64,000 nucleotides of DNA from Fibrobacteria bacterium (GCA_035352895.1 DAOPYN010000010.1:24188-88187), one strand, 5' to 3'. Shown: positions 31,645 through 64,000, counted from the stretch's first letter. Numbers and translations are program-made. Notes: a model not told the origin generated them from the sequence alone.

Positions 31645-32030
<386 letters not shown>

Positions 32031-36717: not shown

Positions 36718-36718
<1 letters not shown>

Positions 36719-47292: not shown

Positions 47293-48031
47293 ATTCCGTC
47301 AAGACCTTCGCCTCCGTCGAATCCGTTTGCGCCAGCTGGGCGAGGGCATCCTGGAGCAGATGGCCCCGCCGCAGCAGGATCCGCAGGCAGTCCTCGACCT
47401 CCCGGCGATCGGGGGCGTCGACGGCGCGCGCGAGGGCCACCCGGTTGAGACCCGCCCAGCGAGGGGGCTCCCCCAACGCACGGGACCAGGGAACGAGATC
47501 CCTGTCCAACCGTACGCATCCGGCCACGAAGGCGAGCTCCCCGATCCGTACGAACTGGTGGACATGGGCGCCGCCTCCGAGGAACGCGTCGCGTCCCACC
47601 TCCACATGCCCTCCCAGCTGGACCCCGTTGGCAAGCACCGTGCGCGCACCGATCCGGCAATCGTGCGCCACGTGGGAGTAGGCCAGAACCATCGCTCCGT
47701 CCTCCACCACGGTCCACCCCTCCGGAAGGGAGGATGCATGGATGGTAGCGTACTCCCCCACCCGCACCTTCGCTCCCAATCGGCATCCACCTCCGTGGTC
47801 CAGATCGCGCACCTGGGCCAATCCTCCCACCGAAGCACCTTGCCCGATCCGGGATCCCTCCCCCACGATCGCCCCTTGGCAGATCCGGGAATGGGGTTCC
47901 AGGATGCATCCCGCACCGACCTCGCAATGCGCTTCCACCACGCAGAACGGACCCACGACGCATCCGTCGCCCAGATTCGCCGAGCTGTGGACCGCGGCAC
48001 GGGAATCGATGGTCGCTGCGGCGGCCTTCAC
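47252..48031 (-). CDS. lpxA: acyl-ACP--UDP-N-acetylglucosamine O-acyltransferase
   Basis: Left-handed beta-helix hexapeptide repeats, plus the LpxA C-terminal helical domain. The likely GTG start at 48031 overlaps the fabZ stop (GTGA). Confidence 0.85.
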   Translation of the reverse strand: MKAAAATIDSRAAVHSSANLGDGCVVGPFCVVEAHCEVGAGCILEPHSRICQGAIVGEGSRIGQGASVGGLAQVRDLDHGGGCRLGAKVRVGEYATIHASSLPEGWTVVEDGAMVLAYSHVAHDCRIGARTVLANGVQLGGHVEVGRDAFLGGGAHVHQFVRIGELAFVAGCVRLDRDLVPWSRALGEPPRWAGLNRVALARAVDAPDRREVEDCLRILLRRGHLLQDALAQLAQTDSTEAKVLTEFVQGSRRGLLRPE

Positions 48032-48495
48032 ACCATCGTCGCCATCAGCTCGGCCTCGCACGAAACCTGGCCATCCACCAGGATCCGCGATTGGACGGTG
48101 GCCATGTTCCGCCGGAAGGAGACCAATTCCACCTCCAGGCGCAGGCTGTCGCCAGGACGAACCGCCCTGCGGAACCTAGCCTTGTCGATCCCCAGGAATG
48201 CCGGACGTTTTCCCTCCACATCGTGGGAAAGCATCACCAGGATGGTGGCCACCTGCGCGAGCGCCTCGATCTGGATCACGCCGGGCATCACCGGATCGGC
48301 GGGGAAATGTCCGACAAAATGCGGTTCGCCAAAGCTCGCGAGCTTCAGCCCCACGGCGCGCTTGCCCTCCTCGAATTCCAGCAGGCGGTCCACGAAGAGG
48401 AAGGGGTGACGGTGGGGAAGCACGGCCAAGACCCCCGCATGATCGAGGACGCATCCGGGGATGGAGGGCTTGGGAAGGTCGGCAAGGCGTGGCAT
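48028..48495 (-). CDS. fabZ: 3-hydroxyacyl-ACP dehydratase FabZ
   Basis: 155 aa MPRLADLP...HFPADPVMPGVIQIEALAQ... hot-dog fold. This is the only real part of the 800-aa ORF-track entry. Confidence 0.9.
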   Translation of the reverse strand: MPRLADLPKPSIPGCVLDHAGVLAVLPHRHPFLFVDRLLEFEEGKRAVGLKLASFGEPHFVGHFPADPVMPGVIQIEALAQVATILVMLSHDVEGKRPAFLGIDKARFRRAVRPGDSLRLEVELVSFRRNMATVQSRILVDGQVSCEAELMATMV

Positions 48496-48569: not shown

Positions 48570-51500
48570 TCAGGGAGCGCGCTTGTATCCGACCTTGAAC
48601 AGCTTGTTCTGGATCATGACCCGAACGTTCACGCCGTTGACCGACTGCTGGCTGTACGAAACCAGCCGCAGCATGTACACGCCCGTTGCCAACCGGCCCT
48701 TCTCGCCACCCATGCCGTTGAGGGAAAGCAGCACGGCGTATTTGCCGTTGCTTGCCACCATTCCCTCGGCGGCCAGACTGTCCCGGTCGAGCTTGAGGTC
48801 CTGCTTCCCGACGAACACTCCCAGGTTGTCGTAGGCGAGAACCTGACCGTCGAACGAAGTATTCAGTTCCACGCGCACGCCGAAGAGCCCCGTTGCCACC
48901 GCCACCGAATCCAACGATCGGAGATTGGACGCTCCGGTGCTGGACACGGGTTTGGCCTGACCGCTCCACGAGGTGGGCAGCACCCAGACGCTCAATGGAG
49001 GCAGAAGGCGCGTGGGCTTGTCCAACCCGTCGTCGACGAACACGGGCTGGGGGAAGACCGACGCCTTGTAGCGGACCGGATAGGGACCGGTAAGGACGGG
49101 AACCTTGAGGGACACATCGCCCACCGCGTTTCCAACGGCATCCTGCAAGCCCTTCGACAGACGTGCGCTGTCCCCGAAGGCTGGCAGGCCGTAGGTGGTG
49201 ACCCCGTCGGTGCAGCTGTCGCAGATCACCAGTAGGCGCGTTCCCTGGACGATGATGTGGGCCTTGGGATCCGTCGGAAGGAAAGGCTTCTGTTCCCCCC
49301 TGCGAATCACGTCGAAGAGGAACGACGGGACCGGCGCATCCTTCAGTGGCTCGGAAAGGACCAACGCGATGGTGTCGGCCGCTCCTTCCACCTGTCCGTA
49401 GGATACGAACACCGACTGGAGGACCGGAGCGATGCCATCGAGAACCACGAACGGCTGCGGCTCCAGGGGGGTGCCGTCGACGATGCTCGTGGATGTCCCC
49501 GTTCCGTTGCCGGAGGTCTTGCCCGCGGGGAATCCCGCCACGGGAATGATCGCCTCGGTGAGCCCCACCAGTCGCTTGCCGTACCCGACGCTGTCCACGG
49601 TCACGGTCACCCCCTGCCAGGTGAAGCCGAAGGTCGGGGAACCCAGCAACGGACGCTTCCAGGCCAGGCGCACGGCATCGGCCGTTCCATCGCCGTTCTG
49701 GTCCAGGATCCGCGCGGTGTCGGGAGCGCGATCGCCACCCGCCACAGGCACGTACGGAGCGGCGCCGGAAGACGCCGGGAGTTGATCGGAAGAGACCGCC
49801 CGCAGGACGGATCCCGTGATGGCCATGCGCACCAGATCGCCCGGCTCCACGCTGCCGACGGGGATGTCGAAGGTTCCGACATTCGCCCCCGCCCCGCTTG
49901 CCGGGATGGTCGTGGCGGTCGCGGGAATCGGCTCGTCGCCGGCGGCGGTCTTGCGGACCAGGTAGACCGTTTGCCCCGGGCGAAGCCCCGACACCACCGG
50001 TTCGGAGAAACGAACGGTGAGCTTGTCGGAGCCCGCGGCGAATTCGAGCTTGGCCACACCGATGGCGACGGGAGGAACCGAGTCGCGAAGATCGTAATCC
50101 TCGCGGCGCATGGATCCCTGGAGCAAGGTCAGCTTGCCCATCCCGTTGAGTCCCGTTCCCACGGTCAGTCCCGCGGCGATGTTCACGGGCAGCTGGTAGG
50201 TCGCATTGCCCAGCGACACGGCCTGCGCCCAGGAATAGGTGGAATCGACGGTCTGGATCCAACTGCCGACCACGATCTTGTCCGGAGCTTCGGCAGGTTT
50301 GCGGAATTCCCGACGGAAGACCATGGTGACCACATCGGCACGACCGTCGCCATCGCGATCGGAAAGCCAGGAATCGACGATGGGAACGGCGATCGGCTGC
50401 AGGACGATCTGGGCGGTATCTCCACCGCATTCGCTGTAGCGTCCCGGATTGCCCGCGGCGTCGACGATTCCCGACGCGGTGGCGATCGCGATGCGCGCAC
50501 CTTCGGCCACGGCTCCGGCGGCATTGCCCTGGACCACGAACACGAGGTCGGTGGTCCCGTTGCCGGAAACCACCTGGGCGGGCATCGGCGATGCGGGAGT
50601 GGTTTCCACGCCTCCGAGGAAGGTGCGGAAAGGCAGAGTGGTTCCCGCGAAGGTGACCGGCTCGCTGAAGCGGACCTTCAAGGTGTCGGTTCCCGGAGTG
50701 GTGTTTTCCACGATGGTGGCCAGGATCGGCCGAGGCCCGATCCCGTCGGAGACAGGAACGTAGGAACCATCACCCAGGACCACCTGGGTGTCTTCCGCCG
50801 GCGGACGGCGCAACGAAGCCACCACGCGGACCTCGGCGAGCGGAATCCAGGCGGGAAGTTTGGCCAGGCTCGCCCCCAGGGAAATTCCCAAAGCGGTGTT
50901 CCCTGCCAGAGGATGGATCTTCGTGGAATCCAGAGACACCGTGTCGGCACCCAGTCGGAACACCACCCGGCTCAGGCGGACCTTGGATGTATCCAGAACC
51001 GCGACGCGCACGGATCCCCCCAGAGGCTTGAACAGGATCACAGTGGAATCCGCCGACCCGTCGCAATCCTTGTCCAGGAACACGCCATTGGCGGGTTCCG
51101 GGGCATCCGGCTTGGGAGGCAGACGGAACGTGACGGGTTTGAAGAGGGCCTGCACGCCGTTTCCGATCCACGGATGCGATGCCTTCAGGGTGTCGTTGGT
51201 CAGCGGCACATCGGACCGAACCCACAGGTCCAGGACTCCGGCCACCAGGGTCGCCGAATCCAGGGCAGTCGTAGAGGTGGCCGTGGCGTAGAACTTGGTC
51301 CCGGCGACCGATTTGAGGGTCACCGTCGCACCCGACCAGGAATCCGTGGCGTCCGGAACGGTTCCGTTCTTGGAGAGGATCAGGTGGACGGGCATGGCCA
51401 CCGTGATGAACGTGTCGATCTTGGAATCCGGCACGAACCAGAGTTGAGCACGCGGCTTGCCCACCTTCATGAGGGCGGAATCGATGACCGTCTTCCCGTT

Positions 51501-54269
51501 CACGTTGGCGAAGCCCCAGAACTTGTGCCCCTCCGTCCCCTCCACGAAGTGGTAGAGGGAGACAAGACCCGTGGCATCGCTCTTGACCTGCGTGGCGGTG
51601 AAGGGGCCCGTGGCGGCGGCGGCATACCCTTGCCGGAGGATTCCGGGATCGATCGCCTGGTACCCCAGGACCACATCGGCGATGGTGTCCACCTTGTTGC
51701 CGAACTTGTCCACCACCTGGAGCGTGATGGGGGTGGGCGCCTGATCCATGATGGTGGCGATGGAATCCTTGGGCCGGGTCTGGTCCACATACATCCAATC
51801 CGGCGGATTCTGCCAGATCACCTTCTCGGGCAGACCCGGGCGGACGTTGATCACCCCGGCACCAGGCACCGGAAGAGTACCGACCATTCCGGAAAGGGAA
51901 ACCGTGACAGTCCCGGTCTGGGTGAACCTCACGTTGAACGACCCGATTCCTCCTGAGAGGTTCTTCCCGATGGTGTCGCCGGACATCACCTGCTTGTCGG
52001 CAGGGAGCAGGAACATGTTCTTGTCGGGGGTCGCGGCGAGAACATCGATGGTGGGGATGCTCGAATTGTTGTCCGTCCGACGGCCCACCACACGCATGTA
52101 GACCGGCTCTCCCACCCGCACGGACGAGACCGTGTCGGTACCCGTCGCGGAACGGGTGAAGTACACGTCCAGTTTGTATTGGGTCTGCCGCCAGATCCAA
52201 ACGCCCACGTTGGACTTGGTGGGCTTGCCGTCCACCTCGCCCTTGACCACCAGATCGAACCTGGCGAACGAATCCACCGGAGCGGTGGGAAGCGATGCCT
52301 TGAAGATGCCGCAGGAATTGGCTGCGGGCTTGGTGCCCGTGTTGGTCAGCTTGACCGGAGTCGGGAACGCGGGAGTGGGAATGTCGCCGTTGGGCCCTTC
52401 CTTGGTCAGCGAAATGGTCCTGTAGTAGCTCGCCAGTTCGAATTCCAAGTCGGAGGCGGTTCCATTGGCTTCCAGGCAGTACTGGAACGAAACCGTCTTC
52501 GCGGTCTTGTCCAAGGTGACGATGAACTGGTCCTTGAGAAGCAGCGGCGAAATCAGACCGTCACCGGCCTCGGAAACCGCACCTCGATCCACCATGGAGC
52601 CATCCATGTCGCGGTTGCCGGCAGCCACCCACCCCTTGTCGAAGACCGTGGAGTCCACGATCGCCGAATCCCATTGCGGAACCAGGAAGCCGGGATTTCC
52701 AGGAGTGGTGCTCTTGAAGGGGAACTTGCGGACCCAATAGTTGGCCTGTAAGGAAATGTCGATGTTCGCGGTCGCGTTCGTGCCGGCCCCCTTGACGTAC
52801 CGGATGCGCCCGCCCTGGTGGAAGAAGTCGGCGTTCTGGGGGTTGGTCGCCTCGTAGGGATTCCCCTTGTAGATCCCGGTGTAGTTGGCACCCTGCCCGA
52901 CATTCCATCCGTTCCAGATCCACTGACCCTTCACACCCTGGATCACGGAAACCGGCTTGTCCCAGGTGAGGTAGCAGGGAGGCGCCTGGTTGACCGTGGC
53001 GCAGACCGCCGCATCTTGGACAGGCCCCGATTGCTCGCTTTGGATCTGGTAGAGGGAATCCCCCTCGCCCACCTCGAAGGTGTTGTTGTACAGGAAGTCC
53101 TTGTAGTACTGCAGGTATTGGCGGCCATCCTTGACCATCCGGGCATTGATGCCCTTTCGGTTGAAGTTGGTGACCAGGTTGTTGTAGAAATAGTGCTGGA
53201 CTCCCGGCTTGAAATAACTGTTGGCGAACACCATCACGGAGCCGTTGATCGTGTTGTTGTAGATCTTGTGCGGAACGATGCGGACGTCCTTCAGGTACAT
53301 GAATCCGCCGGTCATGTTGTTGGATTCGGCCGAGGAGTCCGTGTTCTGGGCGAACTGGGTGTTGTAGTTCTGGTCCATCAGGTTGTAGCGGATGGTGGAT
53401 CCGATGTCCCATTCCATCTCGTTGTAGATCACAAACCAGTTGTTGTGGACGTAGTTGCGCTCGATGAGGTGGTCGCCCATCTTCCCGAACCGCGAATAGG
53501 GGACGATGGTCTTCACGTCCAGATCGTTGGGATTGGGCGCGGCGAAGGCACCACCGACGTTGCGGTTCTGGATGTACATGGCGGCGAAGCAATTGCGGAT
53601 CTCCGTGTTGCGCACCACCACCTTCTTGGACTGGAAGAGGTTGATGCCCACGTTTCCGAAGAAGACGTCCCACTTGTCGTCCCAGATCCCATTGTTGACG
53701 AAGGTGGTGGGCTTCTTGCCATCGATGTGGATGCCTTCGATGAGGATGTTGGTGGACTTGTAGACCACCACGTAGCCGTTGTTCTGGAATCCGCTGGTGC
53801 TGTAGGGGTTCGCCGAGGCGCCGGTGTCGCCCGCTGCACCGGCACCACGTTGGCTGGAGCCCTTGACCGGCCATTTCTTCCAGCCGGCGGGACGCAGCGG
53901 ATCGGCGGGATTGGCCGCCGTTCCAGCGGCATTGAATTCGCTTGCGATGTTGACGTAGGTCAGCCGAGGCCGGATCTTCAGGGCGACCATCTGCGGGGAA
54001 GGCTGGATGGAAAGATTGTTCTTCTCCTCGATCCAAACTTCTCGACTGATGTTGTAGAGAGAGTCAGTGAGGACGATCTTGCATCCCGCGGCCGGACACG
54101 CGTTCACCGCGTTCTGGATGCTGGTGTAGGCTTGCCCCGCCCCGACGTTCATCTGGACCTGGGCCTGCAACTGGGCCGGAGCCAACAGGAGACCAGCGAT
54201 CCCTCCCCATAGGGAAAGGAGCTTCGTGTGGAAAACGAACTTGGTCGGACGGGGCAGATCCAGCAGCAT
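48570..54269 (-). CDS. giant secreted cell-surface protein (1899 aa): right-handed beta-helix (pectin-lyase-fold) N-terminal region, Ig-like/Ca-binding repeat array, conserved C-terminal sorting-like domain; paralog A
   Basis: Signal peptide MLLDLPRPTKFVFHTKLLSLWGGIAGLLLAPAQLQAQ. N-terminal region NACPAAGCKIVLTD...NPYSTSGFQNNGYVV...VRNTEIRNCFAAMYIQNRN with many N-N-T/YNN beta-helix rungs. DxDGDGxxD motifs. C-terminus ...GVYMLRLVSYSQQSVNGVNVRVMIQNKLFKVGYKRAP. Confidence 0.8.
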   Translation of the reverse strand: MLLDLPRPTKFVFHTKLLSLWGGIAGLLLAPAQLQAQVQMNVGAGQAYTSIQNAVNACPAAGCKIVLTDSLYNISREVWIEEKNNLSIQPSPQMVALKIRPRLTYVNIASEFNAAGTAANPADPLRPAGWKKWPVKGSSQRGAGAAGDTGASANPYSTSGFQNNGYVVVYKSTNILIEGIHIDGKKPTTFVNNGIWDDKWDVFFGNVGINLFQSKKVVVRNTEIRNCFAAMYIQNRNVGGAFAAPNPNDLDVKTIVPYSRFGKMGDHLIERNYVHNNWFVIYNEMEWDIGSTIRYNLMDQNYNTQFAQNTDSSAESNNMTGGFMYLKDVRIVPHKIYNNTINGSVMVFANSYFKPGVQHYFYNNLVTNFNRKGINARMVKDGRQYLQYYKDFLYNNTFEVGEGDSLYQIQSEQSGPVQDAAVCATVNQAPPCYLTWDKPVSVIQGVKGQWIWNGWNVGQGANYTGIYKGNPYEATNPQNADFFHQGGRIRYVKGAGTNATANIDISLQANYWVRKFPFKSTTPGNPGFLVPQWDSAIVDSTVFDKGWVAAGNRDMDGSMVDRGAVSEAGDGLISPLLLKDQFIVTLDKTAKTVSFQYCLEANGTASDLEFELASYYRTISLTKEGPNGDIPTPAFPTPVKLTNTGTKPAANSCGIFKASLPTAPVDSFARFDLVVKGEVDGKPTKSNVGVWIWRQTQYKLDVYFTRSATGTDTVSSVRVGEPVYMRVVGRRTDNNSSIPTIDVLAATPDKNMFLLPADKQVMSGDTIGKNLSGGIGSFNVRFTQTGTVTVSLSGMVGTLPVPGAGVINVRPGLPEKVIWQNPPDWMYVDQTRPKDSIATIMDQAPTPITLQVVDKFGNKVDTIADVVLGYQAIDPGILRQGYAAAATGPFTATQVKSDATGLVSLYHFVEGTEGHKFWGFANVNGKTVIDSALMKVGKPRAQLWFVPDSKIDTFITVAMPVHLILSKNGTVPDATDSWSGATVTLKSVAGTKFYATATSTTALDSATLVAGVLDLWVRSDVPLTNDTLKASHPWIGNGVQALFKPVTFRLPPKPDAPEPANGVFLDKDCDGSADSTVILFKPLGGSVRVAVLDTSKVRLSRVVFRLGADTVSLDSTKIHPLAGNTALGISLGASLAKLPAWIPLAEVRVVASLRRPPAEDTQVVLGDGSYVPVSDGIGPRPILATIVENTTPGTDTLKVRFSEPVTFAGTTLPFRTFLGGVETTPASPMPAQVVSGNGTTDLVFVVQGNAAGAVAEGARIAIATASGIVDAAGNPGRYSECGGDTAQIVLQPIAVPIVDSWLSDRDGDGRADVVTMVFRREFRKPAEAPDKIVVGSWIQTVDSTYSWAQAVSLGNATYQLPVNIAAGLTVGTGLNGMGKLTLLQGSMRREDYDLRDSVPPVAIGVAKLEFAAGSDKLTVRFSEPVVSGLRPGQTVYLVRKTAAGDEPIPATATTIPASGAGANVGTFDIPVGSVEPGDLVRMAITGSVLRAVSSDQLPASSGAAPYVPVAGGDRAPDTARILDQNGDGTADAVRLAWKRPLLGSPTFGFTWQGVTVTVDSVGYGKRLVGLTEAIIPVAGFPAGKTSGNGTGTSTSIVDGTPLEPQPFVVLDGIAPVLQSVFVSYGQVEGAADTIALVLSEPLKDAPVPSFLFDVIRRGEQKPFLPTDPKAHIIVQGTRLLVICDSCTDGVTTYGLPAFGDSARLSKGLQDAVGNAVGDVSLKVPVLTGPYPVRYKASVFPQPVFVDDGLDKPTRLLPPLSVWVLPTSWSGQAKPVSSTGASNLRSLDSVAVATGLFGVRVELNTSFDGQVLAYDNLGVFVGKQDLKLDRDSLAAEGMVASNGKYAVLLSLNGMGGEKGRLATGVYMLRLVSYSQQSVNGVNVRVMIQNKLFKVGYKRAP

Positions 54270-54449
54270 GGCGAACCTCTTCAGCGACGGCGACACGAAC
54301 GGTCTCGAACGACAGGGCCACGGCCTCCCTATGAAGGAAACGCGAAGCCACATAAAGATTTACCATGATTTTGGTCGCAGGAGGGGCGATTCTGGTTGAT
54401 TCCAGTGGCAAATCGTTCTCGCACGGAGCACGAACCACCCCTGAATCAC

Positions 54450-55229
54450 TCATTCGGCAAGTCGTTGTCCCACCTGGAGATGCAATGCGTGCCCCGCATC
54501 CACCACATCGATCTTCCCCTGAGGAATCCCTCCACAGCGCAAATAGAGGTCGCCAATCAGGTCCAACGCCTTGTGGGCGGCACATTCCCCGGGAATCCGG
54601 GGGACGCCCCCCGTCCAGACCTCTTGCCGGGAATCCACCCCCAGAACCGCAGCCAGGTCTGCCTCCTCCGGCCCCACGTCCCCACCAGGGAACAAACGAC
54701 CGCAATCGGGGGAAGCTCCAGCCAACAAGCCCCGGTTCCGGGCCTGGACAAACTCGCGGGCGGTGACGAAGGTCCTGGCCGACAACAGATCCGGCAAGGC
54801 CTCCGCGTCTCCCTGCCAGGTTTCCTCTCCCTGCGGCCCCCGACTCCACGTCACCCGAAGATCCAAACGTGAGGAGGGTTCGATCCGGATCCGGCCACGC
54901 GCATCGGCCTGTTCGAGGATCGATCCAGGCCCGGGAACCACCAAGGGAGGGTTTGGAGAGCCCGTGGCCAGGATCGCCTCCTTCCAGGCCAGGGCCGAAC
55001 CATCGAACAGGGGAAGATCGGGGTGGGTCGCCTCCAGGATCCATCCGTCGACCCCCAGGATGCAGATGGCCGCCAGGAAGTGCTCGAGGGGGCCGACCTC
55101 GAAGACTCGAGTGCAACGGAGGGACGTGTCGTGAGCCGCTCTCAGTCGCCGCGGCGAGAATTCCAACCGGGAACCGATGCGCACGAGCGCCACCCCGGGA
55201 TCGGAACGTCGGAACCGAAGCGTATTCAT
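54450..55229 (-). CDS. lpxC: UDP-3-O-acyl-N-acetylglucosamine deacetylase
   Basis: 259 aa MNTLRFRRSDPGVALVRIG...PLEHFLAAICILGVDGW...LFDGSAL...AHKALDLIGDLYLRCGG...DAGHALHLQV matches LpxC zinc-site motifs. It is hidden in the frame of a 1111-aa spurious ORF-track entry. Confidence 0.85.
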   Translation of the reverse strand: MNTLRFRRSDPGVALVRIGSRLEFSPRRLRAAHDTSLRCTRVFEVGPLEHFLAAICILGVDGWILEATHPDLPLFDGSALAWKEAILATGSPNPPLVVPGPGSILEQADARGRIRIEPSSRLDLRVTWSRGPQGEETWQGDAEALPDLLSARTFVTAREFVQARNRGLLAGASPDCGRLFPGGDVGPEEADLAAVLGVDSRQEVWTGGVPRIPGECAAHKALDLIGDLYLRCGGIPQGKIDVVDAGHALHLQVGQRLAE

Positions 55230-55321
55230 TTCCCCGGTGTGAAATCCCGGTCCAGCAAAGGAAAAGGCCACCCCCTGGACGGGAGGCGGCCTTTGGATCG
55301 ATCCGAATCCGGGGGGAGTCT

Positions 55322-58300
55322 TCACTGCTTGCGCTGGTAGCCGACCTTGAAGACCTTGTTCTGCAGCATCGCACGGACCTGGACTCCGTTGACGTTCTGC
55401 TTGCCGTAGCTGATCAGGCGGATCATGTAGACACCGCTGGAAACAGGCTTGCCCACCATGTTCGAACCGTTCATGACCACTGCCAGTGTGTACTTGCCTC
55501 CCACCAGGAGACCTCTGGCGCGAAGGTCCTCGATGTCGATGAGGATCTTCTGCGTTCCCACGTAGACCCCGAGGTTGTCGTAGGCGAGGAAGTCCGCATC
55601 GAAGGATGTGTTCATCTCCACCACCAGACCGTAGAATCCGCTCTGTCCGATGGCGTTGGTGATCACCGGATTGCCGGCCTGGGCCACACCGTCCACCGTG
55701 GTCCCGATGGGGGTCCACACCGCATCCGGCAGGTTGCTGGCCGGAAGGATGAAGGCCGAGACGGGAGGCAGCTTGCGCACAGGAGCATCGTCGGGAACCA
55801 CGTTGCTCTGCACCCCACCCTTGGGGTACAGGTTCACGCGATAGCGAGTGGGATAAAGGCCGTTGAAGACGGTCACCCAGACGCTCGAATCTCCCACCGC
55901 ATTGCCTTGGGCGTCGACGATCCCCGCCTGCAGGCGAGCGCGATCCGGCCAGCTGGGCAATCCGAAGGTCGTGGGAGTCTCGATGCATGCGTTGCAAGCG
56001 ATGGTGAACGGTCCCGTGCCCTGGACGCTGGCCAGACCATCCGTAGCGGCGAAGGGCTTGCGGACGCCGCGGCTTTCGATGCCGAGGAAGGAATTGACCT
56101 GCGGCATGGCGATGGGCTCGCTTGCCCAGACCCGGATGGTGTCGGCGGAACCTTCCACCTGGCCGTAGCTCACGAAGACGGAATCGATGACCGGAGGCAC
56201 CCGATCCTTCAGGGGGAAGGTCTGGGCCGGCTCCAAGGCTCCGGCCACCAAGCTCTGGGTGGTTCCCAAGGCGGATGGATCCCCTGTGACCATGGGAAGG
56301 AACCCGACCACAGGCAGGGTGAGTGTCACCGAATCCTTCGCACCATGGGTCTTGCTGTCCACGGACACCGGAGTGCCGCCCCAAGTGAAGGTGTAGAGTG
56401 GATTGCCACGCAAGGGGCTGGCGTAGAACAACCGGACCGCATCGGCAGTACCATCTGCGTTCAGATCCAGCACCAAGGCGGAATCCGGAACACGGTCGCC
56501 ACCTTGCACCACCACGCGCGGAGGATGCGCCACCGTGGTGGGGATCACGCCTCCGATGCCGACCAATCTCGAGGTCGCGTTGGGTAGGTAGACACTGTCG
56601 CCCACGGCGGGATACGGATTGGCCGAAGACGGAACGGAGAAGACCCAGTTGGTCGATGCCGCCATACCGATGGCAGTCAGACCCAACGCTTGGCCACTCT
56701 GGTGCATCAGGTAGGATCCGCCGGCGAGCTGGGAAACGGGCTCGGAGAAGACCACCCGCAGGGTGTCGGCGTCCTTGCCGAAGCGCAGCGCGGCGGACAT
56801 GGGAATGGGCCCCACGCTGTCGACCAGATCCACGACCTGGTTCTGCATGGGACTGCGGAAGGTGAGCTGTCCCTGTCCGGCCAGCCCCAGACCCGTGGTC
56901 TTGCCGACTTCGAAGGGGACGATGTCCACCGAGAAGTTGATGCTGTCCGCGGAGCTGCCCAGCTTGACCGAACGCGTCCCGCAGAAGTCGCACCAGTTGG
57001 AGACCACGAGGGAATCCGGGAAGTGGGCGGTCTTGGAAAGCTTGGCGGCGAAGCGGACATGGATCTGGTCGGCCGCGCCATTGCCATCGACATCCACGAT
57101 CGCGGCGGAAACCATGGGAATCGGTTTCACATACACCAGGAGGGTGTCGGTGGCTCCGGCACAGTCGTCGGCGTGGTTGCCGGCGAGGTCGACGATGTCC
57201 GCCGAGGGATCGATCCTCACCACGGCCTTCTCCACCAGCAATCCGTCGTTGCCCTGGACATCCAGCTCGATGGTGTCTGCGGCAACTCCGATCTTGGCAT
57301 TGAGAACCGTCGCGGCAGTCTTCTTCCAGACGCCGCCGTTCCACACGAGAAGCGGGAAGACGGGCTTGGTGTAGACCACCGGTTCGCTCACCACGAAACG
57401 CAAGGTGTCGCGGGGATTGCCCAGGGAGTTTTCCCAGATCACCGCACGCGGAACCAGACGCGGCCCGACGCGGTCGGCGATGCCGAAGACGGTATCGGTC
57501 GTTCCGGTCACCAAGGCGTTCACCACGGTGTCGCCGAGGGAAAGCCGCTTGAGGCTGAGCCGAATGGAGGCGGCGCCACTGGGAGTGGTTCCTGGGATCG
57601 GATTGGAGAGCGCGACATCCAGGATGGAGGAATCGGCATCCACCACCTTCGTGGAAGCGGCAGGAATGAGCTGGCTGGCGAAGGGCAGCTTCACGGATAC
57701 ATCCGTGACCTGGATCGAGTCCTTCAAACGGCGCACCGGATCCTTCTTGAAGAAGATCCGCACGTGGTCCGCCGCACCGTCGCAATCCACATCGCGGAAA
57801 GCGGCGGAATCGACGCTGGGCGTGGGCGGAACCGGGGGCGGCATGAAGGTGATGGGCTGGAAGGTGGCGGCATCGTCCAACGCTGGGTTGGTTGCGGCGA
57901 TGCTACCTGCCGAGACAGGGCCATCGGACAGGACCACCAGATCGACGGATGCGGTCGAACGGAGAATGTCCACGGAAGCGATGGCGGAATCGGGATTGGT
58001 GGGCAGTGCCAAACGCAATCCCGGAGCCAAAGTGAGGGTGGCGGTGAAGGGAGGCGCCGAAGCATCCAGCGCCGGAGCTCCATTGCCGTCCACCAGAGTC
58101 AGGGTGATCGGAGCGGATTGCCCCAGATACCGGAAGATGGAGTCGCCAGCGGCATAGGTCCACTTCAAGGCTTCCTTGGGAGGCATCACCTTGACCCGGG
58201 CCGAGTCGCGCACCACGACCTGCGATTTCAGGAAGAAGACGCTTCCCACCGGATCGAAGGTCCTTGCCCAGAAGACGCCGTTGGCGGAATCCAGGTGGAG

Positions 58301-61300
58301 GACAATGGACTTGGCGGAAGGATCGCCACCCACCACGGACACTCCGCCCAAGGCGGTGGTGATCTCGATACCGATGTCGGAGCTGGTGTCCACCAGGTTG
58401 CCCACGCTGTCGAACACCGTGACCTTCACCGGTACCCGCGCGTTCTGGGTCATGAAGCCGGTGTCGGCCAGGGTCACCGAAGGCGGATCCTGGAATTGGG
58501 CCATGTAGGGAAGGCCGGGACGGATCAGGATCTTGCCGTCGCCGGAGAAGCTCGCCTTCTTGCCGCCCACGCCCACGGTGTCCTTGCCGTTGGCGCCCAC
58601 GATCTGGGGACCCGCCACGGTGAAGAACACGTCGTAGGAGGTTTCGCCCTTCACGTTGGTGCGGAAGATGTCGGAAGGTTCCACCAGGGTGCCACCCTTG
58701 GCCACGTCATGGAGCCCGGTGGCCCGGATCTGGACCATCTGCAACGTGCCCGAGTACAGGTTGGCGGTCTTCTTGCCGGCATCGAGCGAATCGCGGAAGG
58801 AGGTGTCGGCGGCGACCACCTTGCCCAGGCCGGTGCAGACCTTGGCCGCGGAATCCTTGCTGGACAAGCCCAGGTAGGTCAGGACGCCGGTGACGTTGTT
58901 GCGGCAGTTGTATTTGATGCTGCTGACCACGGAGAGCACCGCGTCGCGGGAAACCACGGGTCGCACCCGCATGACCACGGTCTGTCCCACGCGGGCCGAA
59001 TTGATCTGGGCTCCGGTGGTCTTGTCGAAGAACATGACGTTCATGTCGAAACCGTCGTTCTTGTAGAGCCACGTTCCCATGTTGGAATACACCGTGGTGC
59101 CCGTGGCCGTCTGGGCCACCACCATCACCTGGTAGCGCGAGCGCGGGTCGGGCTTGACCGGGAGCTTCGCTTCGAAGGTGTTGGATCCTGGCTTGGGGAC
59201 GCCGCTGATGATCGAGGTCAGCGCGAGGTCCTTGGGATTGTAGGGGAGGATGGGGGTGTCGTCGTCGGAAACCGCCGAAGCGTAGGAGAAGATGTAGTAC
59301 TGGTAGTTGACGAAGTTGCCACCGGTCTCGACCAGGTCGAAGGAGAAACGGATGGTGTTGGCGACGGAGTCGTACTTGGCCTGGGTTCCGTCCTTGAGCA
59401 CGATGCTCGGTGCGGTCCCCTTGGACTTGGACTTGGCTCCGACGTCGGCGATCGAGCCATCGGGGTCGATCCCCCACCGGCCATGGTCCAGGATCACGGA
59501 ATCCACGCCCGGGTCCTCCCAGACGGGCTCGAGGAACTTGGGGCTCTTGGGATCGACGGACTGGAACGCCACGGACTTGATGAACCAGTTGGTCTGCTTG
59601 CGCACGTCCTTCTTGGCGATGGTGTCGATGGTCCCCAGGGTGTCGGTCCAGGTGGCGCGCAGATTCTGCACCAAGACGGAATCCAAGGCCGTCCACTGCT
59701 GCTGGTTGGCCTGATCCATGATGGGGATGGTGTCGCCGGGCTGCACGCCCGCCGGCAACTGGTTGTTGTTCGTGCCGACGACGCCCTTGAGCAGGCCGAG
59801 CACGGAATAGTTCTTGGTGGGCAGTTTGGCCGGAGGCACGGCGGGGACGGAGAGTTCCCATCCATTGAAGGGGAAGTTCCGTTCACCCTTCTGGTACTGG
59901 ATGTTGGCCTGGCTCCAGTACTGGATGCTGTCCTTGAACGGGGTGGCCAGGTTGATGTAGGTGCCCGTGGTGGCACCCGGCGGGGTGTACTGGGTGGCCT
60001 GGAAGTTCCAGGTCAGTTTCTGCGTCTGTACGTTCACCTGCAACCGGGGCTCCGGGAAGACCGCCTCCGACCGGGTGATGGTGGTCATGGCGGAATCCGT
60101 CACCTTCATGGCGGTGAGGGCGACCTTCTCGGGGAAGATCGCGAAGGTGTTGTTGTAGATGCCGTCGGTGTACTTGGAGATCAGGTCGACGTTCGAGAAG
60201 TAGGTCTTGAAGTTTTCGGTCTTGAGACCGGTCTTGGACTTGTTGTAGTCCAGGTACATGTTGGTGATGAGGTTGTTGTACACCAGGTGCTGGGTGGTCG
60301 CCCGCCACATCCCGTACCCGAAGATGGACGCGTTCTGGTAGAACGTGTTGTTGTAGATCTTGTAGGGAACGGTGACGAAATCCTTGCCGTACATGAATCC
60401 GCCCGCGTGGTTGGCGGCTTCCGAATTCCCCTTCACCGCGGTGGGCGCGGCCGTGGGGCAGCCCGCGGTGGCGGACTTCGCGCAGCTCATCCACTGGGCG
60501 TAGTCGCGGTTGTAGTTGCTGTACACCAGGTTGTGGTGGAAGGTGGACCCCAGGTCCCAATCCGACTCCACGTAGACGCCCCAGACGTTGTTGGCGAGCT
60601 CCGAGTACTCCACCATGTGCTGCCCGGAGTATCCGAATTGGCTGTTGGGCAGGAGCATGTCCTTGTCCAGGTCGGCCTGGTTGTTGCGCGCCATGGCGCC
60701 GCCCTTGTTGCGACCGAAGATGTACAGCGCGGAAAAGCAGTTCTGGATCTTGGTGTTGCGCAAGGTGACTTCGCGCGAAAGGAACAGGTTGACGCCGAAA
60801 TTGCCAAGGAGCGTCGGATACCCGGAAGGATCCCAGATGTTCAGGTGTCCGATGGGCAGGGGGGCCACGCCGTCGATCACCACGTTGTCCAGCGTGATGT
60901 TGGAACTCTGCTTGATCAGGATGACGCCGTTTTGCTGGTAGCCGCTGGTGGAGTACGGATTGGAGGAGTTCTTGCTTCCTCCGACCGTGGCCGTGTTGTT
61001 GATGGGCCACTGCTTCCAACCCGCGGGCTGGTTGACGGAATCCGCCGCCGTGAAGAACGGCCCCGCCAGCAGGCCCTGGTCCTGGAACTGGATGACCGGC
61101 TTGACACCCAAGGCACCCTTGATGGTGATGTTCGATTTCTCGTAGATCAAGAGCGTGTTGGGCAGCTTGTACAAGGGGTCCGACAGGCTGATCACGCAAC
61201 CGGTGTTGGCCGGGCAGGCGTTCACCGCGTCCTGGATGGTCGCGTGCGTGCCAGGGACCTTGAATTGCGCCTGCGCAAAGGCCGTGGATGCCATGGAAAG

Positions 61301-61369
61301 CAATCCGCCCAGCAGAAATACTCCAAACTTCCGACGAAAATCGGACCAGACAGGCAATCCCGCAAGCAT
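55322..61369 (-). CDS. giant secreted cell-surface protein (2015 aa), paralog B of 48570..54269
   Basis: Signal peptide ...RRKFGVFLLGGLLSMASTAFAQA. N-terminal about 250 aa colinear with paralog A (NACPANTGCVISLSD...NPYSTSGYQQNGVIL...LRNTKIQNCFSALYIFGRN). Ig-like repeat array and DVDCDGAADH-type motifs. C-terminus ...SGVYMIRLISYGKQNVNGVQVRAMLQNKVFKVGYQRKQ. Confidence 0.8.
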   Translation of the reverse strand: MLAGLPVWSDFRRKFGVFLLGGLLSMASTAFAQAQFKVPGTHATIQDAVNACPANTGCVISLSDPLYKLPNTLLIYEKSNITIKGALGVKPVIQFQDQGLLAGPFFTAADSVNQPAGWKQWPINNTATVGGSKNSSNPYSTSGYQQNGVILIKQSSNITLDNVVIDGVAPLPIGHLNIWDPSGYPTLLGNFGVNLFLSREVTLRNTKIQNCFSALYIFGRNKGGAMARNNQADLDKDMLLPNSQFGYSGQHMVEYSELANNVWGVYVESDWDLGSTFHHNLVYSNYNRDYAQWMSCAKSATAGCPTAAPTAVKGNSEAANHAGGFMYGKDFVTVPYKIYNNTFYQNASIFGYGMWRATTQHLVYNNLITNMYLDYNKSKTGLKTENFKTYFSNVDLISKYTDGIYNNTFAIFPEKVALTAMKVTDSAMTTITRSEAVFPEPRLQVNVQTQKLTWNFQATQYTPPGATTGTYINLATPFKDSIQYWSQANIQYQKGERNFPFNGWELSVPAVPPAKLPTKNYSVLGLLKGVVGTNNNQLPAGVQPGDTIPIMDQANQQQWTALDSVLVQNLRATWTDTLGTIDTIAKKDVRKQTNWFIKSVAFQSVDPKSPKFLEPVWEDPGVDSVILDHGRWGIDPDGSIADVGAKSKSKGTAPSIVLKDGTQAKYDSVANTIRFSFDLVETGGNFVNYQYYIFSYASAVSDDDTPILPYNPKDLALTSIISGVPKPGSNTFEAKLPVKPDPRSRYQVMVVAQTATGTTVYSNMGTWLYKNDGFDMNVMFFDKTTGAQINSARVGQTVVMRVRPVVSRDAVLSVVSSIKYNCRNNVTGVLTYLGLSSKDSAAKVCTGLGKVVAADTSFRDSLDAGKKTANLYSGTLQMVQIRATGLHDVAKGGTLVEPSDIFRTNVKGETSYDVFFTVAGPQIVGANGKDTVGVGGKKASFSGDGKILIRPGLPYMAQFQDPPSVTLADTGFMTQNARVPVKVTVFDSVGNLVDTSSDIGIEITTALGGVSVVGGDPSAKSIVLHLDSANGVFWARTFDPVGSVFFLKSQVVVRDSARVKVMPPKEALKWTYAAGDSIFRYLGQSAPITLTLVDGNGAPALDASAPPFTATLTLAPGLRLALPTNPDSAIASVDILRSTASVDLVVLSDGPVSAGSIAATNPALDDAATFQPITFMPPPVPPTPSVDSAAFRDVDCDGAADHVRIFFKKDPVRRLKDSIQVTDVSVKLPFASQLIPAASTKVVDADSSILDVALSNPIPGTTPSGAASIRLSLKRLSLGDTVVNALVTGTTDTVFGIADRVGPRLVPRAVIWENSLGNPRDTLRFVVSEPVVYTKPVFPLLVWNGGVWKKTAATVLNAKIGVAADTIELDVQGNDGLLVEKAVVRIDPSADIVDLAGNHADDCAGATDTLLVYVKPIPMVSAAIVDVDGNGAADQIHVRFAAKLSKTAHFPDSLVVSNWCDFCGTRSVKLGSSADSINFSVDIVPFEVGKTTGLGLAGQGQLTFRSPMQNQVVDLVDSVGPIPMSAALRFGKDADTLRVVFSEPVSQLAGGSYLMHQSGQALGLTAIGMAASTNWVFSVPSSANPYPAVGDSVYLPNATSRLVGIGGVIPTTVAHPPRVVVQGGDRVPDSALVLDLNADGTADAVRLFYASPLRGNPLYTFTWGGTPVSVDSKTHGAKDSVTLTLPVVGFLPMVTGDPSALGTTQSLVAGALEPAQTFPLKDRVPPVIDSVFVSYGQVEGSADTIRVWASEPIAMPQVNSFLGIESRGVRKPFAATDGLASVQGTGPFTIACNACIETPTTFGLPSWPDRARLQAGIVDAQGNAVGDSSVWVTVFNGLYPTRYRVNLYPKGGVQSNVVPDDAPVRKLPPVSAFILPASNLPDAVWTPIGTTVDGVAQAGNPVITNAIGQSGFYGLVVEMNTSFDADFLAYDNLGVYVGTQKILIDIEDLRARGLLVGGKYTLAVVMNGSNMVGKPVSSGVYMIRLISYGKQNVNGVQVRAMLQNKVFKVGYQRKQ

Positions 61370-61533: not shown

Positions 61534-62457
61534 TCAGCCCTCTGGCGCCCCGCGGGTTCCCGAATCCCTTCGACCGGACCCCGGACGGGCGGGAAACCCG
61601 CGAAGAACCGTTCCCACCGGCCACGAGCGGGTGACTCCGGCACGGGCGGCCACCACGCAGTCGTCGCCCAGTCGGACGTGATCGGCGAAACCCGCCTGCC
61701 CACCCACCAGGCACCGGTCCCCCAGGATCACCGACCCTGCCAGTCCGGCTTGGCCCGCCAACACGGATCCATCACCGATCCGGCAGTTGTGGCCCACCTG
61801 GATCTGGGCGTCCAGGTGACAGTCGCGACCGATCCGGGTCGGATCGAGCAATCCCGCCGCGATCTGGCATTGAGCTCCGATCCTGGAGCCCGCCCCCACC
61901 TCCACCCCACCCCAGTGCGGCAAAGGCCTGCGAACCCCGTCGAGGAGAACCAACCCGAATCCGGGCGCTCCCACCACGGTTCCGTCCCCGATGCACACCC
62001 CTTCGCCCAACCGCACACGTGGATGGATCACCGCTCCCGCACCGAGGGCCACTCCGTGGCCCAACTCCGCCGTCCGGTGCACCATTGCGTGGCGCGCCCT
62101 CTCGCCGAAGCGGTGGGCCAGCTCCAAGGGAGACAGCCAATCTTCGGGAGCCTCGGGAGGACGGCAAGGTCCTTCCAGGATGTCCAGGAAGACGCGGGAA
62201 GGCTCCGGGACCTCGACGAACCTTGGGACAAAATCCGACATCAGGTGTTCCCTCTGGCGGGAACTCCCCACCAGAACCTGCGCCCGGCAAGCGCGGACCT
62301 GCAGGGGACTCGCCTGCGCAGGCAGCACGCAAAGATCGCCCGGACCGGCCTCCTCCAGTCCCGCCAGACGAAACAAGGGGACCCACTCCATCGGAAGGGT
62401 CCCCAGTTCCGGCGACAACTCGCCCCACCCGCCCACGCCAGACAGAGCCAGCGCCAT
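61534..62457 (-). CDS. lpxD: UDP-3-O-(3-hydroxyacyl)glucosamine N-acyltransferase
   Basis: N-terminal LpxD domain plus a hexapeptide-repeat beta-helix (GHNCRIGDGSVLAGQAGLAGSVILGDRCLVGGQAGFADHVRLGDD...). Confidence 0.85.
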   Translation of the reverse strand: MALALSGVGGWGELSPELGTLPMEWVPLFRLAGLEEAGPGDLCVLPAQASPLQVRACRAQVLVGSSRQREHLMSDFVPRFVEVPEPSRVFLDILEGPCRPPEAPEDWLSPLELAHRFGERARHAMVHRTAELGHGVALGAGAVIHPRVRLGEGVCIGDGTVVGAPGFGLVLLDGVRRPLPHWGGVEVGAGSRIGAQCQIAAGLLDPTRIGRDCHLDAQIQVGHNCRIGDGSVLAGQAGLAGSVILGDRCLVGGQAGFADHVRLGDDCVVAARAGVTRSWPVGTVLRGFPARPGSGRRDSGTRGAPEG

Positions 62458-62463
62458 GGACGG

Positions 62464-63051
62464 CTACTTGGTCTTGGTCTTCGCGGGGGCGGCGGGGGCG
62501 ACCGGTGCGTCCTTGGCGGGAGCATCGGTGGAGATGAAATCGGCGTTCAGGCGATCCAGCACCTTCTGCGTCAGATCCCAGTCCTCCTTGCCCACGTAGA
62601 AGACCGCACCGGAGGCGCGATCCAGGACCAAGTCGTAGCCTTCGGCCTTGGCCACCTGTTGGGCGATCCCCCGGATCTTCTGGATGATGGGCGAGGTGAA
62701 CTTCTCGTTCTCCTTGACCAGCTTGCCGTCCTTGCCGTAGAGGGTCTGGACCATCTTCTGGAGATCGGCCTGCTTGGCCATGAAATCGCTCTGGAGGTTG
62801 CGCTTGCGCTCCTCCGAGAGCATCATGCCCTGCTTGTCGAACTTCTCCTTGAGGGTGGCCAGTTCCTTCTGCTTGTCGGCGACGTCCTGCTCCCAGGCGG
62901 CGACCTGCTTGTCGAAGCGTTCCTGGGCCTCCTTGGTGCCCTTGAAACCGTCGAATATGGCCTTGGTGTCCACCAATCCGATCCGCGGAGCGGCGTCGGC
63001 GGCGAAGACGGAAATCGACAACGCGAGGATGCTCAGGAAAACGTTTCGCAT
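62464..63051 (-). CDS. skp: periplasmic chaperone Skp (OmpH)
   Basis: Signal peptide MRNVFLSILALSISVFAADA, then Skp/OmpH coiled-coil pattern (IGLVDTKAIF...QKELATLKEKFD...). ATG 63051. Confidence 0.85.
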   Translation of the reverse strand: MRNVFLSILALSISVFAADAAPRIGLVDTKAIFDGFKGTKEAQERFDKQVAAWEQDVADKQKELATLKEKFDKQGMMLSEERKRNLQSDFMAKQADLQKMVQTLYGKDGKLVKENEKFTSPIIQKIRGIAQQVAKAEGYDLVLDRASGAVFYVGKEDWDLTQKVLDRLNADFISTDAPAKDAPVAPAAPAKTKTK

Positions 63052-63062
63052 GGGGTGGCCTT

Positions 63063-64000
63063 TCAGAAGGGCTGTTCGATGGTGAAGTTCGCGTGCATCC
63101 CCTTGTTGGGGATGGATTGGCCGTAGCTGTTCTCGCCGTCGTCCAGGCCCCAGGCGAAGTCGAACCCGAGGATGCCCATCATGGGGATGTTCAACCGGAA
63201 ACCGAAGCCCCAATCCCGCTTGAGGTTGCCCAGATCGATCTCCTCCCAGGGATTGGGAAGGGTCTTGACGGAGTAGTCCACATTCCTTCGCAAGGCCTCT
63301 CCGAAGACGTTCCCCGCGTCCATGAAGGCGATCAGGTAGAACAGCTGGTCGGCCACCGGATAGCGGAGTTCCGCCGTGCTGGAAAGGAAGGCGCGCCCCA
63401 CCCGGAACAATCCCAGCGACGAGGCGTCGTATCCGCGCATCTTGCCCTGGTAGCCCAGAAGCCCGCCTTCGCGGTACAGCGAAGACTCCTGCAGCACGTC
63501 GCCCCCCTGGATGCCGCCCTGCATCTCCATGCCCAGGACGAACTTGCCCACCGTGGGGAACCACCACTTGGCCACCGTGGACCCCTGGTGGTAGTCGAAA
63601 TCGCCGCCGAAGATCCCGCCCACCCGGCGGTAGGACAGCTGGAACACGCTGCCGGAGGTGGGGAACAGAGGCAGGTCCTTGTCGTCGCGGGTGAGCGTGA
63701 CGGAAACCGACGATTCGATGCCATCCCTTCGCAGGAGCCCCGCGTCGTCGGAGTTCGCTCCGCGATAGCGGTTCAGGGAGAAGCCGTACCCGGTCCCGAT
63801 GGAGAAATAGTCGTCCGGCCAGGTGAGGCGGCGCCCCAGGGAAAGATCGAAGCCACGGGACTCGTAGTCGTAGGAGTCGTCGTATTGGTCGGTCTGGTGG
63901 GTCCAGAACCCGGAGATTCCCACGCGGGTGGGCGAATCCATGAACCAGGGCTCGGTCAGTCCCAGGCGAATGCTCTGCTTGTAGCCGCCGTAGTCGATGT
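63063..64000 (-). CDS. bamA: outer membrane protein assembly factor BamA (C-terminal beta-barrel part; gene continues beyond window end)
   Basis: Omp85 barrel sequence ending ...GMHANFTIEQPF (C-terminal Phe). It lies immediately upstream of skp, which is conserved synteny. Confidence 0.85.
   Translation of the reverse strand, partial: IDYGGYKQSIRLGLTEPWFMDSPTRVGISGFWTHQTDQYDDSYDYESRGFDLSLGRRLTWPDDYFSIGTGYGFSLNRYRGANSDDAGLLRRDGIESSVSVTLTRDDKDLPLFPTSGSVFQLSYRRVGGIFGGDFDYHQGSTVAKWWFPTVGKFVLGMEMQGGIQGGDVLQESSLYREGGLLGYQGKMRGYDASSLGLFRVGRAFLSSTAELRYPVADQLFYLIAFMDAGNVFGEALRRNVDYSVKTLPNPWEEIDLGNLKRDWGFGFRLNIPMMGILGFDFAWGLDDGENSYGQSIPNKGMHANFTIEQPF

Follow-up and report, generated by a model that had tools for sequence, protein, structure and literature searches.

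Paired giant proteins of a Fibrobacterota family, encoded within a lipid A/BamA gene string: candidates for a two-component surface coat

Two giant paralogues and their domain architecture

The stretch of Fibrobacteria bacterium DNA considered here (GCA_035352895.1, DAOPYN010000010.1:24188-88187; 64,000 nucleotides, referred to below as the window) harbors two giant genes on its minus strand, designated A and B, which lie within a string of genes for lipid A synthesis and outer membrane assembly. A preliminary description of the window had drawn attention to two paralogous giant open reading frames (ORFs) at these positions, and all of the motifs which it quoted are present in the translations. 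The genes and the domains of their products, including the C-terminal domains (CTDs), are as follows (positions are those of the window).

48570..54269, minus strand: gene A, 1899 aa, approximately 203 kDa, paralogue clade II (ORF listing)
54162..54269, minus strand: signal peptide of A, approximately 36 aa, ending in LLSLWGGIAGLLLAPAQLQA before QVQ (cleavage LQA/QVQ), read by eye
52554..54161, minus strand: N-domain of A, beta-helix, 30% identical to the N-terminal part of B by BLASTP (and family alignment)
51096..52553, minus strand: immunoglobulin (Ig)-like array of A, aligning with that of B
49119..51095, minus strand: three repeat modules of A, with loops DKDCDGSAD, DRDGDGRAD, and DQNGDGTAD (module alignment)
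48573..49118, minus strand: CTD of A, ending KLFKVGYKRAP; family CTD hidden Markov model (HMM) E 3.8e-35 (and family alignment)
55322..61369, minus strand: gene B, 2015 aa, approximately 215 kDa, paralogue clade I (ORF listing)
61274..61369, minus strand: signal peptide of B, approximately residues 1-32, with an RRK n-region, FGVFLLGGLLSMASTAFA, and cleavage AFA/QAQ, read by eye
59405..61273, minus strand: N-domain of B, residues 33-655, a right-handed parallel beta-helix with a variable insert (approximately residues 426-575) and a conserved closing segment ending DPDGSIADVGA
57815..59404, minus strand: Ig-like array of B, residues 656-1185, approximately 4-5 beta-sandwich domains; all-beta in the AlphaFold2 (AF2) model, with a predicted local distance difference test (pLDDT) score of mostly 75-90
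55862..57814, minus strand: three repeat modules of B, residues 1186-1420, 1421-1622, and 1623-1836, with loops DVDCDGAAD, DVDGNGAAD, and DLNADGTAD
55325..55861, minus strand: CTD of B, residues 1837-2015, ending KVFKVGYQRKQ; family CTD HMM E 4.8e-32

The third-position GC content of the two genes (0.82 for A and 0.85 for B) is that expected of real genes in a genome of approximately 64% GC. The ORF of A was listed at 48570-54353; a start at 54353 was rejected in favor of the ATG at 54269, which is preceded by AGAGG 7 nt upstream and yields a 1899-aa product identical (100%) to the database protein P0011. Gene B starts at the ATG at 61369, with AGGAG 5 nt upstream, and its product is 100% identical to P0001, a protein of an NCBI Fibrobacteria metagenome-assembled genome (MAG) which is annotated as 25 aa shorter. 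Both database copies carry the label "hypothetical protein." The signal peptides were judged by eye, on the basis of a basic n-region, a hydrophobic core, and a cleavage site; the family consensus retains "AQ" at the predicted cleavage position. In most family members, a Gln directly follows the predicted site (AFA/Q, LQA/Q, SNA/Q, and LFA/Q), recalling the pyroglutamate "Q-rule" of secreted proteins of the Bacteroidetes.

A and B are genuine old paralogues. Of the two blocks aligned by BLASTP, one spans 1,165 columns at 35% identity (E 9e-134) and the other 821 columns at 30% identity (E 4e-82). A and B are therefore collinear over their full length, which extends the collinearity previously noted at both termini, and too divergent to represent assembly duplicates. 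That the two ORFs might have arisen in assembly, an eventuality raised in the preliminary description, or by a recent duplication can be practically dismissed: their mutual similarity is all that speaks for it, while an identity of only 30 to 35% refutes it, each has a separate orthologue of 80 to 85% identity in the same order on the 4.4-Mb contig of another genome (the complete sister genome, JADKEE010000001.1), and they belong to different paralogue clades. The central repeat array, where divergence had previously been placed, is alignable family-wide; conservation is instead lowest in the N-domain insert (B 426-575) and in the stretch B 800-900.

The shared N-domain was found to adopt a right-handed parallel beta-helix, i.e., the pectin lyase fold, as had been suggested, even though the Pfam Beta_helix family (PF13229) matched the B N-domain below its gathering threshold (16.8 versus 25.9 bits) and gave no match in a scan of A. 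Among relatives of approximately 25% identity, the residues R194/N195, H225, E242/D246, K303/D304, N315/T316, and N339/N340 are invariant, being located at strand ends and spaced at roughly one per helix turn. The Ig-like arrays proposed earlier are borne out by the AF2 model and by Foldseek, which matched the B array to SbsB (2.7e-10), to the MG domains of alpha2-macroglobulin and complement, to SbsC, and to a Haloferax S-layer protein; because the TM-scores are approximately 0.1, the resemblance to S-layer proteins is generic. A Pfam scan of the B array returned no match.

The DxDxDG motifs, candidate calcium-binding loops of which there are three per protein, each open one of three homologous modules of approximately 200 to 235 aa, in which the loop is followed by a beta-rich part and then by "D..P ... 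DTLxVxFSEP." When the six modules (three from each protein) are aligned, the residues D, G, A, D, D, P, D, S, E, and P are invariant. Their loops gave only subthreshold FG-GAP_3 matches in Pfam, Pfam scans of A and B detected no RTX/HemolysinCabind repeat, and a profile of the six modules found no match among PDB sequences.

Distribution of the family and its place in the lipid A gene string

Scans of A and B, both whole and by subregion, against Pfam and NCBIfam gave no match above threshold, and searches of PDB sequences with phmmer (stalk and CTD regions) and with the full family profile gave chance-level matches only (acetolactate synthase, one complement MG domain at 0.0058, and FlgD at 0.079). 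No earlier account of the family was found in a literature search. The family is undescribed, as the preliminary description had supposed, while its component parts (beta-helix, Ig arrays, and a FlgD-Ig/T9SS-like tail, where T9SS refers to the type IX secretion system) are of known kinds; what sets it apart is the enlarged CTD, the pairing that is conserved, and, most notably, the way in which its genes are interleaved with lpxD, lpxC, fabZ, and lpxA.

An exhaustive search with the N-domain profile of 1.84 billion cluster representatives (clusters at 50% identity) returned 242 matches at E<=1e-30 and 326 at E<=1e-10, in which the domain always starts at approximately residue 20-50. B has orthologues at 85, 61, and 53% identity. 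Those of A, at 81 to 50%, and its many remoter relatives all stem from Fibrobacterota MAGs or unnamed metagenomes. A peptide-pattern scan of one genome per species (185,579 species), the breadth of which is limited to the pattern, identified 45 loci, 45/45 of them in Fibrobacterota (Fibrobacteria, Fibrobacterales, uncultured Fibrobacter, Chitinivibrionales, and Chitinispirillales). The family, of approximately 240 clusters, thus appears from these searches to be confined to this phylum.

Tandem pairs of giants occur across the phylum, most genomes retaining two distinct paralogues next to each other. In a rough neighbor-joining tree, proteins of 1,900 to 2,450 aa fall into at least three old paralogue clades, and pairs on the same contig mix these clades: I and II in the window, II and III on four long contigs, and I and III in L005 (loci fetched for comparison are numbered with the prefix L). 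The ancient tandem duplication proposed earlier is too simple an account in view of the existence of at least three old clades, the differing pairs, and the presence of lpxC between A and B.

The minus-strand order of the surrounding genes is bamA-skp/ompH-lpxD-B-lpxC-A-fabZ-lpxA, followed by a histidine kinase and an OmpR-type response regulator and, beyond these, by a CDP-alcohol phosphatidyltransferase gene, two GT2 genes, and accA. This lipid A and outer membrane context, including the separation of A from B by lpxC, had been overlooked in the preliminary description.

63063..64000, minus strand: bamA, C-terminal part, cut by the window end (Pfam Omp85, 3.4e-30)
62464..63060, minus strand: skp/ompH (Pfam OmpH, 1.1e-28)
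61534..62457, minus strand: lpxD, directly upstream of B (NCBIfam NF002060, 3.5e-50)
54450..55280 (end approximate), minus strand: lpxC, between B and A (Pfam LpxC, 2.4e-29)
48028..48495, minus strand: fabZ, directly downstream of A (Pfam FabA, 3.3e-28; 94% identical to fabZ of L001)
47252..48061, minus strand: lpxA (NCBIfam NF003657, 7.4e-65)
44808-47292, minus strand: histidine kinase and OmpR-type response regulator, directly after lpxA

Little DNA separates the giant genes from their neighbors (164 nt from lpxD to B, approximately 41 nt from B to lpxC, 180 nt from lpxC to A, and 74 nt from A to fabZ), and terminator-like sites in the string are not in excess (8 versus 12.0 in shuffles); it is, therefore, plausible that the genes from bamA to lpxA form an operon-like unit. 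A single terminator-like hairpin was located downstream of B; it runs into the start of lpxC and is probably without meaning. A promoter scan revealed no sigma-70-like sites, and an Rfam search of the intergenic gaps revealed no RNA element. A full-length bamA orthologue with POTRA domains is present in L001. The lpxC gene is short (approximately 276 aa), with a Pfam match spanning profile positions 8-205 of 268, and its identity to the orthologues of L001 and L009 is only 58 to 61%, versus 91 to 94% for bamA, skp, and fabZ; it may be evolving fast or be partly degenerate. The histidine kinase and response regulator keep their position after lpxA in L001, L005, L013, and L014, and this two-component system could regulate the string.

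When the envelope genes of the window and the family HMMs were compared with all fetched loci, giants were found inside the lipid A/BamA string in L001, L005/6, and L009-L015 besides the window, i.e., in at least nine genomes. This location is characteristic of the class Fibrobacteria. L013, in which the order is bamA-skp-lpxD-[2028 aa]-[1925 aa]-lpxC-fabZ-lpxA-histidine kinase-response regulator, probably represents the older arrangement; lpxC separates the two giants in the window, L001, and L009, and the pair of L005 still adjoins lpxC-fabZ-lpxA with a different upstream side. To our knowledge, the interleaving of surface protein cargo genes with lipid A and BamA genes has not been described earlier.

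In Chitinispirillia, Chitinivibrionales, and uncultured Fibrobacter, the giants are shorter (approximately 1,540 to 1,740 aa), often in tandem, and located outside the lpx cluster, and they are often preceded by a gene for a PA14 protein of approximately 700 aa which carries the giants' CTD (E 4.4e-10). Such a PA14 gene is located directly upstream of the giant pair in L002 (2552-4594) and also in L037, L038, L040, L042, L043, and L046 (Chitinispirillia/Chitinispirillales), an arrangement suggestive of a three-gene surface protein cluster.

The C-terminal domain and the route of export

The CTD had been delimited at approximately 70 aa and likened to T9SS sorting domains. The AF2 model instead predicts one compact beta-sandwich of approximately 180 aa with short helices (pLDDT 91.7; predicted template modeling score 0.87), to which the short "GPNPF..." CTDs of distant family members align, A and B having an additional insert of approximately 60 aa after the first strand. 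The last 75 aa are strongly basic (pI 10.2 in A and 10.4 in B; 5.4 to 5.7 in the stalk). The domain occupies the extreme C terminus in all of more than 50 family members, and likewise in the otherwise unrelated PA14 proteins, on which basis it behaves as a portable terminal module.

Among 23 family CTDs, Pfam matched FlgD_ig (PF13860) in 14 (best 4e-8), CHU_C (PF13585) in 10 (best 5.8e-7), and Por_Secre_tail (PF18962) in 3 (0.044), while NCBIfam matched the CTD region of the PorU model in 10, the PorZ model in 10, TIGR04183 in 6 (best 4.1e-4), and TIGR04131 in 1. It is only via the family alignment (E of approximately 1e-32) that the domains of A and B are joined to these model-matching relatives. 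Against PDB sequences, the CTD profile aligned with residues 701-741 of 758 of PorZ and 1082-1151 of 1156 of PorU (E 0.006-0.008) and with FlgD (3osv) at 1.8e-4. In a collection of 5.8 billion proteins, the same profile retrieved only five short fragments, from which the spread of this CTD subtype is not inferable; its matches outside the family carry PF13585, PF18962, or PF13860. We consider the family CTD to be homologous, on these profile comparisons, to FlgD-Ig and T9SS CTDs, the fold of which is an Ig-like beta-sandwich (PMC11285876). A and B each combine a terminal domain of this fold with an N-terminal Sec signal peptide, the generic hallmark of T9SS cargo.

The T9SS is present in Fibrobacterota according to the literature (PMC6851124, PMC11285876), and a basic terminal domain (BTD) has been proposed as a T9SS signal in Fibrobacter succinogenes (PMC6851124). 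In the sister genome L001, a homologue of the PorU sortase is encoded approximately 8 kb upstream of bamA (NF033707, E 2.4e-64, across the available C-terminal 622 residues), and a homologue is similarly placed in the sister genome L009. PorU-like genes were located in L001 (1-1871), L009 (2-1813), and L038 (250-1968), at approximately 5 to 10 kb from the giants; L038 belongs to the distant Chitinispirillales, where the proximity is independent of the L001/L009 arrangement.

Several observations weigh against export of A and B by the T9SS. Neither protein individually gives a match to a T9SS CTD model even at E<=1, be it type A (TIGR04183/PF18962) or type B (TIGR04131/PF13585), nor to FlgD_ig, so that the T9SS-type CTD of the preliminary description is plausible from family-level matches and has no direct match in A and B. 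Their CTD holds the insert of approximately 60 aa noted above; a Foldseek search of the PDB with the CTD model yielded nothing at E<=1e-3, with PorU in 23rd place (E 0.021) and FlgD (3c12) in 30th; and the FlgD-Ig fold also occurs in non-T9SS proteins, e.g., C5a peptidase. No T9SS gene was detected in the 64-kb window, and in relatives PorU is the only core gene that was checked and seen.

A rival explanation takes the CTD to be one more Ig-like domain and no secretion signal, in which case A and B would be periplasmic or exported along a different path, e.g., by the type II secretion system (T2SS), perhaps with a role in envelope biogenesis. The failure of A and B against every T9SS model, the weak structural matches, and the existence of FlgD-Ig domains outside the T9SS favor this explanation, as do the neighboring envelope biogenesis genes and the T2SS/type IV pilus-type genes of the window. 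We nevertheless deem it improbable, given that the domain is strongly basic and invariably terminal in the giants and PA14 proteins, that relatives match CHU_C, TIGR04183, and the PorU and PorZ CTDs, that PorU is encoded nearby in three genomes, and that no fold resemblance to lipid transfer or Bam/Lpt/Tam-type proteins was found. On balance, export of A and B by the T9SS is considered likely.

Three further candidates were rejected: a type I secretion system/RTX giant adhesin, as signal peptides are present, no RTX match was obtained, and the C terminus is a beta-sandwich; an autotransporter or outer membrane beta-barrel anchor (the latter having been envisaged earlier), as the C terminus was modeled as a helix-bearing sandwich, not as a barrel; and an AsmA/TamB-like lipid bridge, whose folds do not fit.

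Gliding adhesins of the type of Flavobacterium SprB and RemA, moving on a T9SS-linked track, likewise represent giant, repetitive, T9SS-exported surface cargo, and CHU_C, a type B signal family, is matched by 10 of the 23 family CTDs. SprB and RemA, however, use type B CTDs, PorP/SprF-type partners, and gliding machinery, none of which was seen for A and B at the inspected loci: the type B model TIGR04131 matched only 1 of the 23 CTDs, no porP/sprF-type gene was called beside the giants in any inspected locus, no gld genes are present in the window, and linkage to a lipid A operon is not a trait of gliding adhesins. We know of no description of gliding in Fibrobacterota, and a gliding role for A and B is regarded as highly unlikely.

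Other features of the window are the following.

8310-9938, minus strand: GH5 cellulase-family protein with a signal peptide
31646-32023, minus strand: RNase P RNA, bacterial class A (260 bits), overlapping mechanically listed ORFs
4625-5986, plus strand: large prepilin-type protein (N_methyl motif)
36718-37815, minus strand: PilT/T2SSE-type ATPase

The C-terminal segment of the GH5 protein (approximately 113 aa) has the look of a sorting domain by eye, its only match being DUF6383 at E 0.065; the clearer T9SS CTD previously ascribed to this protein was not recovered, since it matched neither a T9SS model nor the CTD profile of the giants. The prepilin-type protein and the PilT/T2SSE-type ATPase point to a type IV pilus or T2SS-like system in the genome. 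The GC content of the window drops to 0.535 at 6001-8000 (approximately 0.64 elsewhere), where the long ORF at 5808-8228 (plus strand) has no Pfam match; this low-GC stretch may be foreign or noncoding DNA.

Sequons, candidate functions, and known systems

The Bacteroidota O-glycosylation sequon D[ST][AILVMT] is enriched 3.5- to 3.8-fold in the giants, occurring 24 times in A (6.8 in shuffles; z 7.3) and 33 times in B (8.6 in shuffles; z 8.4), while the other 26 proteins of the window hold 36 versus 29.6 expected (1.2-fold). Six control motifs, in which E, N, or K replaces D, the third residue is nonhydrophobic, the pattern is reversed, or A/G replaces S/T, were flat. Relatives from the class Fibrobacteria are enriched as well (z 3.9-11.5), in contrast to three members from Chitinispirillia, which show no enrichment. 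Only 7 sites are common to A and B, and approximately 18 alignment columns carry a sequon in at least half of 38 giants; beyond a few structural motifs, it therefore seems to be the number of sites itself which is maintained. According to a 2025 review, the sequon enrichment of Fibrobacterota resembles that of Bacteroidota, and in Tannerella the two S-layer proteins are the main targets of glycosylation (PMC12871550).

The pairing of paralogues, their position in the lipid A/BamA string, and their sequon load lead us to propose that A and B constitute a two-component glycoprotein coat coupled to outer membrane growth; we give an even chance to the full proposal, i.e., that they are T9SS exported, probably glycosylated, and together form a surface coat. 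Following Sec export via the cleavable signal peptide, the proteins would possibly be O-glycosylated at the sequons in the periplasm and would then probably cross the outer membrane by means of the T9SS, which would recognize the basic C-terminal beta-sandwich of approximately 180 aa. The CTD end would be retained at the outer membrane, either by linkage to lipopolysaccharide (LPS) after cleavage by PorU or by a CTD that is kept, as in PorU and PorZ. From there, the chain would extend outward through the three DxDxDG-loop modules and the 4-5 Ig-like domains to the N-terminal beta-helix at the tip, where the heads may bind or process a glycan. Both paralogues together would thus make up a heavily glycosylated S-layer-like coat, produced in step with outer membrane and LPS synthesis. 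Of the gliding, adhesion, and S-layer-like roles suggested in the preliminary description, the evidence tends to favor a coat-like pair and to disfavor gliding.

The coat proposal itself, with its putative lattice, heteromers, and glycosylation, faces further objections: the SbsB and SbsC matches reflect generic Ig arrays, and the Chitinispirillia members have neither the lpx linkage nor the sequon enrichment.

In the main rival explanation, the long stalk of A and B would display an enzyme (a polysaccharide lyase or hydrolase) or a glycan-binding adhesin at the cell surface. The two proteins would be exported and anchored in the same manner and would differ from each other in specificity, and the beta-helix head would serve nutrition or attachment by cleaving or holding on to an insoluble polysaccharide or an exopolysaccharide. 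The head is located at the end opposite the anchor, its invariant R/H/E/D/K/N residues recur at approximately one per helix turn at strand ends, and the phylum comprises polysaccharide degraders which attach to their substrates (PMC6851124). The invariant residues and the lyase-like fold matches support this explanation equally well as the coat, with which it is also compatible. However, A and B match no CAZy-type Pfam family, and the catalytic residues of PL6, PL9, and AlgE, namely, a Lys/Arg base with Ca2+ ligands or a Y/D/H/D set, could not be mapped onto the head; its identity to pectin lyase-fold proteins (PL6 and PL9 lyases, AlgE epimerases, and CE8 pectinesterases) is 9 to 19%, the likeness being one of fold. 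Such enzymes, moreover, are usually encoded in substrate-regulated loci, not as pairs in a lipid A/BamA string across at least nine genomes. We rate a stalked enzyme or adhesin as possible and less probable than the coat.

A bolder form of the coat proposal, which we put forward as a conjecture somewhat more doubtful still, is that Fibrobacteria build a heteromeric, O-glycosylated S-layer from two T9SS cargo proteins of approximately 200 kDa, with the genes fixed in a bamA-skp-lpxD-lpxC-fabZ-lpxA operon so as to tie transcription of the coat to synthesis of its LPS anchor. If true, it would provide the first concrete substrate for Bacteroidota-type D-S/T-hydrophobic O-glycosylation in Fibrobacterota. 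Members of this phylum are major degraders of cellulose and chitin by direct cell contact, and their outermost surface is poorly described. The present analysis defines a phylum-restricted family for which there is no Pfam or NCBIfam model and supplies its full domain map. A and B would be ideal test substrates for two questions, namely, whether the Fibrobacterota T9SS anchors its cargo to LPS and whether Bacteroidota O-glycosylation reaches the sister phylum, as has been suggested to be possible (PMC12871550). Should the pair merely represent a stalked enzyme or adhesin, the outcome would be a useful but ordinary annotation.

Among known systems, the CTDs of PorU and PorZ, T9SS components which retain this domain, are similar to those of A and B in that the family profile aligns exactly to these Ig-like beta-sandwich domains; the E values are marginal, however (0.006-0.008, with a best value of 4.5e-5), and the A/B CTD is approximately twice as long by virtue of its insert. 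The BTD/Fpm-1 domains of F. succinogenes come from the same phylum and are likewise basic (pI >9 for the BTD, approximately 10 for A and B). They are carried by glycoside hydrolases and are proposed to direct T9SS export and covalent outer membrane attachment (PMC6851124). Some BTDs are annotated as TIGR04183, unlike the CTDs of A and B, whose cargo is giant and not of the CAZyme type.

The TfsA and TfsB proteins of Tannerella forsythia, similarly to A and B, form a pair of large paralogues of the cell surface, both of which start with a signal peptide, end in a T9SS-type domain, and are rich in the same D-S/T-hydrophobic sequon (PMC12871550). These CTD proteins are displayed in a T9SS-dependent manner and jointly form a coat (PMC4175972). 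The two pairs differ in size (203 and 215 kDa for A and B versus 133 and 151 kDa), and A and B are set apart by their N-terminal beta-helix, their DxDxDG modules, and the location of their genes in a lipid A gene string, the coat and its glycosylation being putative in their case. Likened by these features and not by sequence relationship, TfsA and TfsB would represent the closest functional analogue of A and B.

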